DNA of 64,000 nt from Eledone cirrhosa (taxonomy: Eukaryota), in contig OZ024744.1 of assembly GCA_964016885.1 (NCBI GenBank), positions 48,236,001-48,300,000 on the forward strand. The letters are read 5' to 3'. A program made the translations under genes and the position numbers. Positions 40,645 through 57,854 of this stretch are shown here, in pieces. Within the stretch, counting starts at the first letter, position 1, and each line of letters starts with the position of its first letter. A model generated the notes under the pieces. It did not search any database. It was not told where the DNA came from and was given only the letters and a program-made list of their open reading frames with translations.

Positions 40645-42688
40645 AGTTCACCATACCGAGAACAAATGTTTCACCTTATGCGAATCTTCAGCTCGGTCTG
40701 AGTGAAGTTGTACGAAAAAGGAAAAACAACTGTATGAATACGCATGCGCAGAAACGGTCTCCTGGACAATGTATTCCCACAGTTGAACGGTGTAAGGGAA
40801 ATAACTGTGGATGTCCGCAATAAATTATTCGAATTGTTCAGAATATTAGAATGTTGATGTTATTCAATCTGGAGCTTTGTAATTATGCAAAAGGTGTTTC
40901 AGACAACGTGAAAAAAGCTCATTCCTTGAATTTAGGCAATCTTTATTGCGTAATCTTCTCGGGATATTGATCCTTTCTTCAATGCACAGTCCACAAGACG
41001 GCTTTCCCCTCGTGTATCACTAGGACTTAGTGACAGCTTTCCATTGGATGGAGTAGTCTACGCCTGAGTCTTTGAGGGACTATACGTGGCTCGTGAGTTT
41101 CGTGGACAATTGTTTGTCCGGGTATCTAAAGGTCGACTGATGGTTCAGGAAGCCTTCCTTAAACCGACCCTGCGCCATACCTACATAAGATTTAACCTCT
41201 TGTTGTTGATTTGGTCGGTTGGAAATGACCACAGTTTCGTAAATTACAGTGGGTGTGTTGCATTGTTGTTGAAAGGGACAAGCTTCAGGCTTTTGGCAAG
41301 AGCATCCTGGTGGGGTGATGCTCTTACGGCTGATGATGATGTGGGCCTTCATATTCTTAGCACAGGTATCCCTGTGTCTGTTAAAGATGGAGCCGTATTT
41401 GTGACCTATTGGAAAGTGTCTATTTAAGAATGCTAAAAATGTTTTTCCTACATTAATTTTAACGTTGAGTGAGAAGTGAGGAGAGAACCAGATAGTTTTT
41501 CTATTGGCACGATTTCTTTCTTATTGCTGTTGGTGTTAGCAGGGGAATAAGTAATTGGTTGCGAGAAGCCGCTGTTAGCTAACGCCGCGTTATAGTAGGG
41601 TGCCACTCTGTCAAAGATTGCTTTATTAGAGAAGAGGTTAGATTCTAGTACCGATATTATTTACGAAGTTTCTAAAAACTGTTGGAGGGTGGCATGAGTC
41701 CTTGTGTATGTAATTAAGTTTTTCCTTTAGTTTATGGAAGGGTCGGAAGGTGAGTGTGCGAAGGTCTAAATTAATGTCTAAGTAATCTACGCTAGTGAGG
41801 TTGGTAGCTACCGTTATCCTAAGTCCTAACTCATTAAAAGTAGAAATTAAATCTTTTTTAAACCAGTCCAGGTCGTGACCGCTTTTATGGCTCGATAGAG
41901 TCAGACCATCGTCGCGGTATAATCCCGTGTGGAAGTCTGGGAATCTAGTACGTAATATATCTAAAATAAATAAGCCAACCGAGTCGCATACCTCAGCACT
42001 ATCGAACGGTCCCATTGAGACGTCAGATAGTTCTGAAGTAGTTGACTTCTTTGTCCAGGCTACTCCGTTGTTAAAAAGGATGGTTTTTCAGGAATGTGCG
42101 ATGATCTCCCTGTCTAAATCATGGACGGTAGTGTAAGTGGTAGCAAAGTCCAACGCTTTGTTTAACAGGGTACCGAGATCGACAGGTAAAAATCCACAAT
42201 GTCCAATTGTGCGAACTTCGCTTTTTTGGAGTTGAAAGAGTTAAACCACTTAATGACGGAGTCGCTGTTCTCCCATTGGGACAGGTTGGACTTGGTCCTA
42301 ATGGTCTTAACTATGATCCTAACTATAGCCTTACTGACAAGCCTCATCTCCGTGCGTGCCGGGTTTAGTAGTCTACACGTGGGATTAGAAGCAAAGTTTA
42401 CCTTGTGATCTTTAAGGGCGAGAAATGACTCACGCTTAGTTAAGCATTGGTGTTTCTTATCTACCTTAAGGGTGGCAGCAAGTTATTTGGCTTCTGTATT
42501 GATGTCGTTGTAAGCCGTGGGGTGAGCCTTCTTATATTTGGAGGTTATGGCGTTACGTGCCAAGTGGCTGTAAGCAGTGTTGTCGACTTCTTAAATATTA
42601 TAGTATTATCAGCAAGAACCTCTAAATAAAAGAAGGCTGACCCCACGGTCTACCACGACATCAATACAGAAGCCAAATAACTTGCTGC
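40645..42688 (-). mobile_element. Penelope-like element (Neptune-type: RT, Cys-rich linker, GIY-YIG), 5'-truncated, decayed
   Basis: QLDIVDFYLSI (42162-42347); MGPFDSAEVCD..GLYRDDGL..YLDINLDL..YIHKDSCHPP (41638-42015); CSCQKPEACP..C..VIY..YVG..F..H (41080-41352). Hammerhead motif downstream on the same strand. Confidence 0.9.
40655..40697 (-). ncRNA. Minimal type-I hammerhead ribozyme motif in PLE 3' UTR
   Basis: Minus strand: ACCGAG-CTGAAGA-ttcgcataaggt-GAAA-CATTTG-TT-CTCGGT. Perfect 6-bp stem I; weak stem II. Confidence 0.7.
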
Positions 42689-42689
42689 T

Positions 42690-43517
42690 ACCTCCTCCTC
42701 CTCCTTCTTCTTCTTCTTCTTCTTCTTCTTCTTCTTCTTCTTCTTCTTGGGATCTACCCCTGGGTGTCCTGCTGGCTGGTTTTGTCCGTAAAATCTACCC
42801 AGGGTTTTTTTTCCATAGACATTTTAATCACATAGCCGTAGTATCGGAGATGTGATCTCTCAATTCGGAGGAGTAGCGGATGTACTTGGAGTGACTCTGA
42901 TCTCCGAGCTACGCACTTCATCGAGTAACGTTACTCATAGAGGAACCCAGTTTCAGCCGCTTGTATTCAAGATCGTATTTTGTCGGTCATTACTCAAAAT
43001 GTATGACCATAGGTAAGGGTTGGCACGAATATCGAATTGAAGATAGCGAGATTGGCTTTTACACCTATCTCCCTTCTTCTGATTAAGGGATGCTGAAGTT
43101 GGCGCTTTACTGCACCAGCTACTGCAATTCTTGCACTTAATTCAGCCTCCTGCTTTCCATCACTCGTGAACATGGCCCAGAGATACTTGAACTTCTTCAC
43201 CTGTTTCAATGGAACTCCATTCACAGGTAGAAAGCATTGCGTAGGCTTCCTTGAGAGGACAAATCTCTCAGTTTTCGCAGCACTGATTTTACTCCTGCCA
43301 TGCAGCACGCGGCATCAAACCTATCCAGTGCATGTCGGAAATCACCTTCTGACGTGTTAAGTAGCAAATATCAGGCGGCTAATTCTACACTGGTTTTGCA
43401 CGTCAATCCTGTTAATGAAGATTATGAACAAGAATGGTGACACACACACCCTTGGCTGAGTCCGATACCAACATTGAATGGTTTCGACTTAGCACCATTT
43501 ATTCGAACACAAATACT
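42690..43517 (-). mobile_element. RTE-clade LINE 3' fragment with (GAA)n tail
   Basis: KISAAKTE..VNGVPLKQVKKFKYL..ELSARIAVA..IFVPTLTYG (42994-43308); (CTT)n at 42703-42748 is the tail on the minus strand. Confidence 0.8.
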
Positions 43518-43673
43518 AGGTTGCGTCGGGGGAAAGATATATAATTAAAATATTTACACATTAAATTCGTATTTCTGCTCTAAGGACATCTACAGTTTAT
43601 TAGTATCGATGTATATCAATTTTATTGCAAACATCGAGAAATTGTGGCGTTCAGCAAGCGATTTATTAAGAAA

Positions 43674-45110
43674 CTAGCAGTGTATCCCGGCGTTGCACGG
43701 GTAAGAACATTGGTAATAGCACCTCCAATGAGAAATGTTTATTTGTGAGTGCCTGTTAAAAACTCACGAAAATATACCGACAGGAAACTTGTTTTATTTG
43801 GAGAAAATTAAGAAGTTGAAAGTACAGTTTAGCTGTCTACGTGCATTGTTCATAGAAATATTGTTGAGTCCCTTCTTTTCATACTCCTCTGTTTTGGCTT
43901 TTTGGAGTAAATGTGAAAGAGAAAGTCACAAGTTAAGTTGGCAGAAGGTTCCAGTGTCATAGCAGTAAGGCGTAGACAACTTACCTCAAAAGTTCATTCG
44001 CACTCTTTCCACTAAGTTACTCTTTATCTCTATCCCTCTCGGTGCAGTCCCTTGCGAATTTCTCGCGTAGGCCTGGTGTAGATTTACACCCGATCCATCT
44101 GCCCGATGTACATGTCCGCTTTGTATGGCTTTTGGAGGAAGGAGTGACCAGCAGTACGTTGTTCGGTATTATCACGAAAAGGTGTAGCAGAGAATCCCAC
44201 GTGAACTAACAGCTCGGGAGGAAACTGCTTACCTCGAAGATCCATTCGCCATCGTTATTGTCAACGCACCGTTTAGTTGGTATTTGTTGGTCTACAGTTA
44301 GATGAATGGCGCACAAAGGGTTAATGTTTATTGGCAAGAAGTTTTTGAATAATAAAAGACGGGTTAAAGCGACTTACAATGTATTTGTGTATATATATAT
44401 ATACATATATATATATATATATATATATATATGTGTGTGTGTGTGTGTGTGTATATACATATATTTGTATGTGTATATTTATATATATGTATATATATAT
44501 ATATATATATATATATATATATATATATATATATATATATATATATATATATATATATATATGTGTGTGTGTGTGTGTGTGTGTGTGTGTGCGTTTGTAT
44601 ATGTATATATATATATAGATATATATATAGATATATATATAGATATTTATGTATATGTGTATATATGTGTGTGTATATGTATATATGTGTGTATATATAT
44701 ATATATATATATATATATATATATATATATATATATATATATATATATGTATATATAAGTGTATATGTGTATGTGTGTGTGTGTGTGTGTGTGTGTGTGT
44801 GTGTGTGTGTGTGTGTGTGAATGTAGCGAAGATAATACGTCAGCAATGACATGTTCGTCAGAATGTCGTAATGCACACAGCCAGACATACAGACAAATAT
44901 TATAAGGGCACGACGGAGATGGATAACCGGCGCCTAACACCCCTTTAACAACAGAAAATTGAAAAATAAAAGCTGCAGTTAGTATCTTTAGACCGCAAGG
45001 AATATATAAATGCAAGTTTGAAGTCAATCGGAGTAGAAATGTGGATTTGTATAGACTTTGCAAAAGTGAGGACACACACAGAGACAACTACAGTTTTATA
45101 TATATATAGA
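43674..45110 (-). mobile_element. Non-autonomous Helitron containing (TA)n/(TG)n microsatellites
   Basis: Minus strand reads A|TCTATATA...CTAG|T. GC hairpin CCCGGCGTTGCACGGG at 43686-43701 lies near the 3' end. 44870-44930 resembles 53910-53970 of the second Helitron. Confidence 0.7.
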
Positions 45111-45249
45111 TATATCAATTTTGTTTACAGAGTTATCTCCCCTGCACCATAACTTTCTTTACTTCTTTGTCTTATTGAAGAAATTTGTGAGAACAAGAAT
45201 CGGTGTCGGGGTCTGGCAATGTTGTTGCTGTATCTCATAAATGCTTATA

Positions 45250-57050: not shown

Positions 57051-57343
57051 ATAGATAAAAAAGGAGGAAGTTTCGTTTATATATAAAAGATATTTATTGT
57101 GTATCGACCTTTTATGCGCATTTCGCAGAGGATTGGCTCGAGGTAATCCATAGGACTTATTGACCCGACTCCAGTATTGATCTGCTAGCAATGTGACAAA
57201 AAAAATATTTTTCTCGGAGTCAGGTCCAAAACTCCTATTGGTTACCTTGAGCCAATCCTCTGCGAAACGAGCAAAACAGGTCGATATGTGTATCAACCTG
57301 TAAATACCTTTTATATGAAAACGAAACTTTCTTGTTTTTTCTA
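57051..57343. repeat. Long imperfect palindrome / foldback MITE-like element
   Basis: 57051-57172 is the reverse complement of 57216-57343 (e.g. TTTCGCAGAGGATTGGCTC / GAGCCAATCCTCTGCGAAA). Confidence 0.75.
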
Positions 57344-57624
57344 TTATGTACACTCTGCCTGTGCATAGAGTGCTTGATTTGGTACCAACACCAGTATTTC
57401 ACTGTACAAGCCACACACTATATATATACATACATATGTGTGTGTGATCTCAGGTTAATTCCGGGGTAACCAGAGTAAGTAAGGTACTCAATACATTAGT
57501 AGAGTGTAAACATCATGTTTACTATAGAAATGGCTTCTAATGGTTTCTTTTGAATGAAACAGTTCTAGTCCTGTTGAAGCCTTTTCTATATTAAACATGA
57601 TATATATATATTTATATATATATA

Positions 57625-57725
57625 CAGGGTGTCCCCCAAAAATGTACACATATTTTCATTACCTGTACAGGCAATATTTATTAGAATGTTGTTGAAGTAT
57701 ATATAGATTTTCGGGGGACATCCTG
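57625..57725. mobile_element. 101-bp Tc1/mariner-type MITE
   Basis: TA|CAGGGTGTCCCCCAAAAAT ... ATTTTCGGGGGACATCCTG|TA. Confidence 0.8.
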
Positions 57726-57784
57726 TATATACATATGTAATGAATAAAAATAACCCGGATTAAATTACATTAAATTATTTAATT

Positions 57785-57854
57785 GATTTACGAAGGTTTC
57801 TATCAGTACAGTAAGAAATTTAATTATTTCCTCAGTACTGATTTTTTCAGAATC
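57785..57854 (-). ncRNA. Degenerate hammerhead motif with long stem II (core G8 to A)
   Basis: Minus strand: GATT-CTGAAAA-aATCAGTAC..GAAATaattaaATTTC..GTACTGATa-GAAA-CcttcG-TA-AATC. Confidence 0.5.

Follow-up and report, generated by a model that had tools for sequence, protein, structure and literature searches.

The window, a 64,000-nucleotide stretch of Eledone cirrhosa contig OZ024744.1, holds five hammerhead ribozyme motifs within 17 kb, which raises the question of whether they form one family of retroelements clustered there, as the original prediction proposed, and of how their carriers are copied. The five motifs belong to five high-copy mobile-element families (F1 to F5, numbered as motifs 1 to 5), each with hundreds to thousands of first-look candidates. 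We consider it very probable, taken as a whole, that the carriers are unrelated high-copy retroelement families ending in (TA)n, that F1, F4 and F5 are the 3' ends of coding Penelope-like elements (PLEs), and that F2 and F3 are tandem retrozyme units lacking an ORF, for which a Penelope enzyme likely does the copying in trans.

Hammerhead motifs in the window and in the genome

Positions 33001-64000 were scanned with a type-I descriptor (stem I, CUGANGA, stem II, GAAA, stem III, UH). Four matches were found in these 31 kb, at 40655-40697 (-), 48511-48550 (-), 55485-55527 (+) and 56370-56412 (+), while 300 block-wise dinucleotide shuffles averaged 0.023 and never exceeded 2, and the strict setting gave 3 matches compared with 0.003 in shuffles. 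Hence, by this composition control, the predicted PLE-type hammerheads are real. Motifs 1-4 contain the type I core (CUGANGA/GAAA/UH, three helices, open at stem I), while motif 5 (57782-57858, -), assigned by core comparison and fold, carries CUGAAAA in place of CUGAAGA through a G-to-A change at 57845 and has a stem II region of ~ 40-43 nt; other F5 copies mostly display CUGAAGA or CUGAGGA, which is a full core. Motif 5 folds with a z of -4.7, and the isolated folds of motifs 1-4 are weak (z -0.4 to -2.0). An Rfam scan reported none of the five motifs at E<=5, its hits being confined to fragments of rRNA and to microRNA noise caused by (TA)n. Self-cleavage at the UH sites is predicted from the sequence.

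In 600 kb of evenly spaced genome, 29-31 such motifs were counted versus 0-2 by chance, and the genome holds roughly 10^5 hammerhead motifs. The density in the window is ordinary, with 3 matches in 31 kb at the strict setting against 1.0-1.5 expected (P 0.08-0.19). A special cluster of hammerheads was therefore rejected, the genome being saturated with such motifs, and the single clustered family gives way to five unrelated ones.

The covariation that had been suspected from the differing stems is borne out: in an alignment of nine natural motifs (F2, F3 and their relatives, thus related rows, with the structure set by hand), 10 of 13 pairs change on both sides and 94% of cells pair, a level reached by 0/500 shuffles, with slid controls at 24-45%. 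Indeed, stem I pair 55488/55524 varies jointly among subfamilies. Copies show a near-neutral decay. Since the core is not clearly more conserved among copies than its flanks (Fisher p 0.21 for F2, 0.10 for F3, 0.10 for F4 and 1.0 for F5), present copies show little ribozyme selection; selection on the cores is unsupported, save weakly for F1 (p 0.012).

Coding content of the five families

Same-strand PLE protein matches lie upstream of 27/30 F4 loci, 16/30 F1 loci and 3/55 F5 loci (the latter being two places, one of them the query's own source), and of 0/40 F2 and 0/90 F3 loci. Clades were assigned by motifs, and Pfam was above cut-off for one of seven ORF pieces, namely the F4 endonuclease. 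Motif 1 had been thought the only one attached to a PLE ORF; the F4 counts and the link of F5 to a Hydra-clade ORF contradict this. Likewise, the description of the other modules as non-coding is kept for motifs 2 and 3 but not for motif 4, at a coding PLE 3' end, nor for motif 5, in a 3' UTR.

F1 is present in the window as a decayed, 5'-truncated Hydra-clade PLE at 40641-42690 (-), delimited by its RT and linker/endonuclease pieces and the family ends. It comprises RT pieces at 42162-42482 and 41638-42087 (-), a CxCx5C linker with a GIY-YIG-type piece at 41080-41520 (-) and a short inverted 5' piece near 42604-42690; its hammerhead, identified by descriptor and fold at 40655-40697 (-), is of the minimal PLE type with a predicted cut after 40661. 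Relatives of the RT piece display DKT in 11/12, CxCx5C in 10/12 and RWK in 5/12 cases, and CxCx5C is found in the window copy and six other copies. The family thus combines the Hydra-clade features of CxCx5C linker, DKT, RWK, C-terminal endonuclease without CCHH, (TA)n target and hammerhead, DKT and RWK coming from full-length relatives and being absent from the truncated window copy. A PDB search with the F1 RT piece gave nothing below E 0.5, and Pfam on four relatives gave one weak RVT_1 match.

Family comparison places the F5 sense arm, the 3' end of an old Hydra-clade PLE, at 57732-57915 (-), where it ends at the primary of its two end points. The inverted arm at 57922-58075 (+) is made of the ~ 145-nt tail, the alignment covering 57922-58035 and the remainder being assigned by eye. 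The F5 ORF is linked to the hammerhead-bearing 3' region at several loci, and RWK with a decayed DKT and linker was found in locus L155, an old sequence with partly eroded motifs. Furthermore, the F5 body lies downstream of the endonuclease region in 4/25 loci (one being the query), against a background of one F5 site per 600 kb. Motif 5 belongs to the long 3' UTR of this older Hydra-clade PLE.

F4, at 56132-56623 (+), is the 5'-truncated 3' end of a coding Neptune/Nematis-type PLE, as judged from the upstream ORF in copies and the endonuclease match. It holds the last endonuclease codons, the 3' UTR, the primary end near 56568 and the tail to 56623, and its hammerhead (56370-56412, +; predicted cut after 56408) is of the minimal PLE type with an extra base before stem II. 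Over the 3' 1.3 kb of the family ORF that was covered, a CX2-5CxxC linker precedes a C-terminal GIY-YIG with CCHH, motifs that place the family in the joint Neptune/Nematis type. Three orphan F4 tail pieces, with 98-99% identity to a natural F4 copy, lie between (TA)n runs at 48022-48081 (+), 48135-48195 (+) and 48220-48312 (-).

The F2 copy, at 48335-48674 (-), is a single retrozyme-like unit of ~ 340 nt that lacks an ORF and ends at the tail point. F3 consists of an inverted arm at 55131-55288 (-), whose outer end lies at the tail point and is followed by (TA)n, and of a sense arm at 55273-55738 (+), which spans ~ 1.07 units of a ~ 430-nt repeat without an ORF and gives way to (TA)n at the primary point. 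Both cores are canonical type I with a palindromic stem III: the F2 core (48511-48550, -; predicted cut after 48515) has an extended stem I, and the F3 core (55485-55527, +; predicted cut after 55521) a U-U at the stem II base. The term 'minimal' applied to the motifs is thus right for motifs 1 and 4 but not for motifs 2 and 3, in which stem I continues past an internal loop. Upstream, an F2 or F3 unit adjoins a further unit of its own family in head-to-tail order; F3 arrays of 5, 10 and 50 units were seen, with higher-order periods of 2, 3 and 4 units in large arrays, and F2 mostly shows 1-1.8 units. Both families therefore have what defines a retrozyme, a tandem repeat of 150-450 nt that lacks an ORF and carries a canonical type I hammerhead in every unit. 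The modules are high-copy rather than single-copy, as foreseen: the F3 ribozyme has 4,586 exact 40-nt matches (control 0), and a 39-mer of F2, an older family, has only 10 exact matches because of the ~ 10% divergence between copies. Low-depth contigs of F3 and F4 also occur in organisms B, C and D; they are few, near-identical to the copies of this genome, and were not counted as conservation.

An octamer, ATGCAAAT (55403-55410, +, in the F3 sense arm; mutated in the F2 window copy), lies ~ 90-95 nt upstream of the F2/F3 hammerhead in 27/30 F2 and 28/30 F3 copies, compared with 0/90 for F1, F4 and F5. The promoter of newt satellite 2 reportedly contains an octamer. A third related array, at locus L240 (310-nt unit), is without the octamer, hence the motif is not universal.

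Insertion scars and the copying template

Comparison of copies reveals the structure of each family and two fixed 3' end points, primary and tail, at which all five families end in (TA)n; this is the known PLE 'tail' signature. Loci were chosen by likeness to the query, so that end classes are biased, strongly for F2, F1 and F5: F3 right ends are primary in 21, tail in 19 and other in 7 cases (n=47), and (TA)n is found at 35/40 F3, 27/27 F4, 22/28 F1 and 20/26 F5 ends. An assembly-independent contig set displays (TA)n loose ends at the same points. The predicted (TA)n embedding is therefore confirmed for the families, but the window copy of motif 1 has no (TA)n flank, in contrast to the 22/28 end-classified F1 copies. 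At F2/F3 insertions, any target-site duplication is masked by the (TA)n flanks.

Partial-tandem and inverted insertions both occur. Among inverted ones, 45/50 have one arm at each end point (F3 20/22, F4 10/11, F1 3/3, F5 6/7, F2 6/7), the 50 excluding 22 with one unclassifiable end; of the five exceptions, four are tail/tail. The ribozyme cut site is read through, since 0/30 arms with an anchor a little downstream of it stop there, and a pile-up of 5' ends at the cut site was thus rejected. Dispersed F2/F3 copies show variable 5' truncation, fixed 3' ends and unequal arm lengths.

Given that the F2/F3 scars match those of the coding families, F2 and F3 likely borrow a Penelope enzyme, so that the predicted PLE-mobilised, non-autonomous units are retained for motifs 2 and 3 and abandoned for motifs 4 and 5. 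Trans-mobilisation rests on the shared scar because five PLE queries yielded no autonomous partner with sequence in common with F2 or F3; nor was a relationship seen to the pseudo-LTRs of resident PLEs, of whose many families in this genome few were compared. The shared scar provides direct genomic support for PLE-driven retrozyme mobility.

Other origins of F2 and F3 have to be weighed. They could be 3' UTRs or pseudo-LTRs of coding PLEs whose ORF copies are rare or decayed, with no non-autonomous lineage; indeed F5 seemed ORF-less until the upstream walk, and Hydra-like ORF fragments lie within 1.5 kb of 7/30 F3 loci. We hold this improbable, considering the lack of any same-strand upstream ORF at the F2 and F3 loci counted above, and nearby fragments that are antisense or downstream, mutually different and without a common junction. 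Moreover, these units offer no open side for an ORF, since the upstream unit adjoins head to tail. Still less credible is a DNA-level repeat (satellite- or MITE-like), with inversions from DNA transposition or recombination and an incidental ribozyme: the higher-order periods in large arrays are typical of unequal crossing-over, but variable 5' truncation, fixed 3' ends, unequal arms, a tail rule common with coding PLEs and stem covariation between subfamilies oppose it. As for chance matches in AT-rich repeat DNA, to which the silence of Rfam and the weak isolated folds might point, the excess over expectation in the window and in 600 kb, together with covariation, refutes them.

Spread strictly via monomer RNA circles, with rolling-circle reverse transcription and obligatory ribozyme cleavage, is the strongest of these alternatives and nevertheless unlikely. 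Insertions exceeding one unit, cut-site read-through, stable predicted circular folds (z -7.3 for F3 and -3.9 for F2; 60 shuffles) and duplicates closer within one insertion than to copies elsewhere (3.1% vs 4.5%) agree with it, and circles have been shown for mussel, coral and axolotl retrozymes (PMC7229834), but an uncleaved multimer explains the same facts; within-insertion divergence and array analysis are compatible with both templates. However, two unit types (A and B) that differ by 3% take turns in an insertion of 10 units, and the inverted arm, a B-then-A piece, has their marks in common; at this one locus, which later crossing-over also shaped, a multi-unit template fits better than one monomer circle. 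Furthermore, PLE insertion in vitro is not blocked by ribozyme mutants (PMC11167929).

In the trans-mobilisation that we favour, a PLE protein would bind multi-unit RNA, uncleaved or re-ligated, nick (TA)n DNA and start reverse transcription at either of two internal sites separated by 45-145 nt. When both target strands prime, each would use a different site, and the resulting inverted pair would have a tail on one arm only. The F2/F3 RNA likely comes from tandem arrays with a candidate internal promoter that contains the octamer. Through their adjacent palindromic stems III, the ribozymes would be able to cut as dimers and so release monomers that may circularise. Tentatively, a dimeric PLE enzyme might prime two (TA)n strands at two RNA start sites, one per strand, several ORF-less octamer-promoted retrozymes having each evolved their own site pair to hijack this step. 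If true, the scars would be the first direct genomic proof that PLE enzymes integrate animal retrozymes, in a genome with such an abundance of hammerheads (~ 10^5).

Relation to known systems

PLE hammerheads, (TA)n-targeting Hydra elements and non-LTR retrozymes have all been described previously, hence the basic finding is ordinary. The Hydra-clade traits of Craig et al. 2021, whose File S1 lists octopus Hydra-1_Obim with a (TA)n target (PMC8557442), recur in F1/F5: a single RT with C-terminal endonuclease, a CxCx5C-type linker, RWK/DKT (in F5 or the relatives of F1), a hammerhead near the 3' end, and a (TA)n target with a tail on one arm. In contrast, F1/F5 copies are decayed, Hydra-1_Obim serving here by its description rather than its sequence, and F5 stands out by a 3' UTR of unusual length that contains a microsatellite, by its ~ 145-nt tail and by its ~ 40-nt stem II region. 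F4 resembles Neptune/Nematis-type PLEs in its CX4CX2C linker, GIY-YIG endonuclease with two Cys and two His, minimal hammerhead, inverted 5' ends and ~ 58-nt tail.

Like the non-LTR retrozymes defined by Cervera and de la Pena 2020 (PMC7229834) and treated by Li, Clavereau and Pollet 2026 (bioRxiv 10.64898/2026.07.22.740005), F2/F3 are ORF-less 340-430-nt tandem units with GC under 50%, a canonical type-I hammerhead, a short palindromic stem III and a self-paired circle prediction, and co-exist with PLEs. They differ in that their insertions lie in (TA)n and bear the complete PLE scar, with two fixed ends, inverted arms and a reciprocal tail, and in that they share an octamer upstream of the ribozyme. 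No homology was seen to the resident PLE ends compared, a relationship to the pseudo-LTR of a resident PLE being a retrozyme trait in Li et al. 2026. The retrozyme-PLE link has so far been argued from co-occurrence and terminal homology; the shared tail scar speaks to the integration step. The young F3 family, with its long arrays and thousands of identical ribozyme cores, lends itself readily to work on cleavage, circles and the promoter. According to PMC2220036, newt satellite 2 has an snRNA-type internal promoter; like F2/F3, with their candidate promoter element, it is a hammerhead repeat arranged in tandem.

With Poseidon_Ac in vitro, Frangieh et al. 2024 found two RT start sites that explain the tail, and ribozyme cleavage to be dispensable (PMC11167929). 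As in our model, two internal start sites bound the tail, the RNA template is uncleaved, both strands are nicked and the protein is a predicted dimer. However, tails measure 45-145 nt here versus the 30-40 nt quoted there, and Poseidon_Ac shows no start-site difference between strands, as against the near-strict one site per arm of the genomic copies, a rule that provides a sharp prediction for this existing in vitro PLE system.

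Hammerhead motifs in the window and across the genome

A type-I hammerhead descriptor was applied at strict and relaxed settings with shuffled sequence as control. Four motifs were found where they had been predicted, at 40655(-), 48511(-), 55485(+) and 56370(+), against a shuffle mean of 0.023. The fifth, at 57785(-), displays a long stem II and, as noted originally, a mutated core, which reads CUGAAAA in the window and is intact in family copies elsewhere. The proposed stem covariation was observed as well, since 10 of 13 pairs show changes on both sides (nine natural motifs, families of motifs 2 and 3). 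An Rfam scan recovered 0 of the 5 window motifs. All five motifs are real; their earlier interpretation was partly wrong.

Sixty evenly spaced 10-kb stretches (599,800 bases of a 3.0 Gb assembly) contain 29 strict and 31 relaxed motifs, 11 of the sampled motifs coming from a single array, compared to 0 and 0–2 in 12 shuffles; hit density is far lower in shuffled sequence, here as for the window motifs. Extrapolated from this sample, 32–48 hammerheads per Mb correspond to roughly 95,000–145,000 genome-wide. At such a density, the 3 strict motifs in the 31 kb of non-satellite window DNA are ordinary (P 0.08–0.19), so that the concentration first thought notable is not unusual for this genome. 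About 20 motif clusters were seen across all DNA examined from the genome, and within the sample the family of motif 4 (F4) accounts for 1.2% of the DNA and that of motif 3 (F3) for 0.8%.

The repeat content of the window is reminiscent of octopod genomes. Half of the window is occupied by a 31-bp satellite (~780 copies, 9–25841) followed by a 48-bp satellite (~138 copies, 26295–32922). They are directly followed, on the minus strand, by two segments of a eukaryotic large-subunit rRNA gene, from its 3' portion (33389–34052), probably a pseudogene fragment. Broken gag-like and RT/RNase H-like frames at 35960–38404 are what we take to be an LTR retrotransposon, and transposase-like and LINE-like remnants at 40300–40640, 51400–52620, 58121–60788 and 62696–63235 presumably derive from hAT-type and pogo/Tc1-type transposases and RTE-type LINEs.

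Coding and non-coding families

The genome was searched with each of the five modules and 30 loci were read per family (F1 to F5, numbered as their motifs). Motif 1 is indeed attached to a Penelope-like element (PLE) ORF, F1 being the 3' end of a decayed PLE with RT, CxCx5C linker and endonuclease. A search with its RT piece yields 3,349 relatives (E<=0.001); among the matches listed, the 12 of at least 690 aa display DKT in 11, CxCx5C in 10 and RWK in 5, which passages of PMC8557442 give as Hydra-clade traits. The remnant at 40300–40640, resembling a hAT-type transposase, adjoins F1's cut 3' end.

The original prediction placed the other four motifs in non-coding modules. For motif 4 this was abandoned, given that the window copy of F4 starts inside the final codons of a GIY-YIG endonuclease and that a PLE ORF lies upstream in 27/30 copies. 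F5 was likewise dropped as a 650-nt ORF-less element following a microsatellite: an RWK-RT-endonuclease ORF is joined to its body at locus L155, a matching RT at L107/L164, and the body is found downstream on the same strand at 4 of 25 loci recovered with the endonuclease region (one being the query itself). Motifs 1, 4 and 5 are ends of coding PLEs, of a known kind.

Motifs 2 and 3 do lie in non-coding modules, head-to-tail units of ~340 nt (F2) and ~430 nt (F3), and no same-strand PLE ORF was found upstream at any of 40 F2 and 90 F3 loci (sets with some overlap). These are two retrozyme families, also of a known kind. F3 is multi-copy, as anticipated, with 4,586 exact 40-nt ribozyme matches in the genome. 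Its arrays comprise 5, 10 and 50 units, with higher-order periods of 4 (L276–L279), 2 (L280–L281), 2 (L282) and 3 (L284) units, and core bases are lost in many units of the 50-unit array; such arrays are a retrozyme becoming satellite DNA. At L041, L052 and L057, the pieces adjoining F3 arms come from Hydra-like PLE ORFs that differ from one another and lie either antisense or downstream. A further retrozyme family is represented at L240:281–3388 (-) by an array that continues into an assembly gap; it comprises at least 11 units of 310 nt, and the canonical hammerhead is intact in every one. At L240:4566–4924 an F3-subfamily copy and a unit from a distantly related family are joined by their tails, as a result either of one insertion nested in the other or of switching from one retrozyme RNA to another.

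Insertion ends and RNA template

In every family the 3' end falls at one of two fixed points, the primary point or, 45–145 nt beyond it, the tail point; (TA)n follows both, in agreement with the modules predicted to be bounded by (TA)n. Contigs of a separate sequencing run (assembly-independent, possibly of the same sample) show loose (TA)n ends at the same points. Many insertions carry an inverted left arm and, where both ends could be classed, these are opposite in 20/22 F3, 10/11 F4, 3/3 F1, 6/7 F5 and 6/7 F2 cases (F2 read by eye), leaving out 22 inverted insertions with one unclassified end and 11/60 F3 loci repeating one insertion. Pooling F3, F4, F1 and F5 gives 39/43 (p 3e-8, 50:50 null); the argument is carried by F3 and F4, because only their end classes are near-even. 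The window copies of F3 and F5 have opposite ends, as this rule predicts. At 48022–48312, isolated pieces of F4 tail recur between runs of (TA)n without ribozyme, which suggests very short or locally duplicated insertions. A tail on just one inverted end is already described in passages of PMC3846280 and PMC8557442, which hold no counts. According to PMC11167929, reverse transcription by a PLE in vitro has two internal start sites, which bound the tail; both strands are nicked, and ribozyme cleavage is dispensable.

Of 30 F3 arms with an anchor directly downstream of the ribozyme cut site, none stops there; thus, the RNA template was uncleaved or re-ligated. Duplicates inside one insertion are somewhat more similar than copies elsewhere. 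In one 10-unit F3 insertion two unit types alternate and the inverted arm has marks of both, which leans towards a multi-unit template rather than a circle. In 4/5 families the core bases have decayed about as fast as the flanks; therefore most copies are inert fossils.

Alongside the family anatomy, fixed ends, (TA)n targets and cut-site read-through observed here, we propose that the PLE protein would nick (TA)n and prime at the primary or tail site, with one start site per strand in two-strand events; F2 and F3 tandem arrays would provide RNA and use the PLE enzyme in trans. Animal retrozymes have been argued to be non-autonomous PLE derivatives from co-occurrence and pseudo-LTR homology (bioRxiv 10.64898/2026.07.22.740005, in part), and the PMC8557442 supplement includes Hydra-1_Obim with target (TA)n. 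The word 'ribozyme' has 0 occurrences in the portion of PMC13282606 searched, and no title or abstract describing these families was found in the literature on hammerheads in Octopus, retrozyme octamers and Penelope/microsatellites, subscription papers being mostly outside coverage. The reciprocal tail rule, common to coding and non-coding families, is worth following, as is an octamer of F2 and F3.

Ribozyme types and the octamer

Folding was performed with the hammerhead core constrained single-stranded. For F2, F3 and relatives the predicted fold has a stem I of 6–7 bp, an internal loop, a long closing helix, a stem II of 4–5 bp and a palindromic stem III, matching the canonical type of retrozymes as described in passages of PMC7229834. 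The original description of all motifs as minimal hence stands for F1, F4 and F5, which resemble the minimal PLE type in passages of PMC4209133, but not for F2 and F3.

The octamer ATGCAAAT is located 88–100 nt upstream of the hammerhead core in 27/30 F2 copies, and at the homologous place in 28/30 F3 copies (20/30 in a second set including truncated copies), for a background chance of 0.0014 per 30-nt slot. It is also present in a distant F3 relative, but was found neither in the 310-nt array family nor in any of 90 copies of F1, F4 and F5. F2 and F3 may share a remote common ancestry, in which case its occurrences are not fully independent. By comparison with newt satellite 2, which has an snRNA-type promoter according to passages of PMC2220036, we infer that the octamer is a candidate promoter element.
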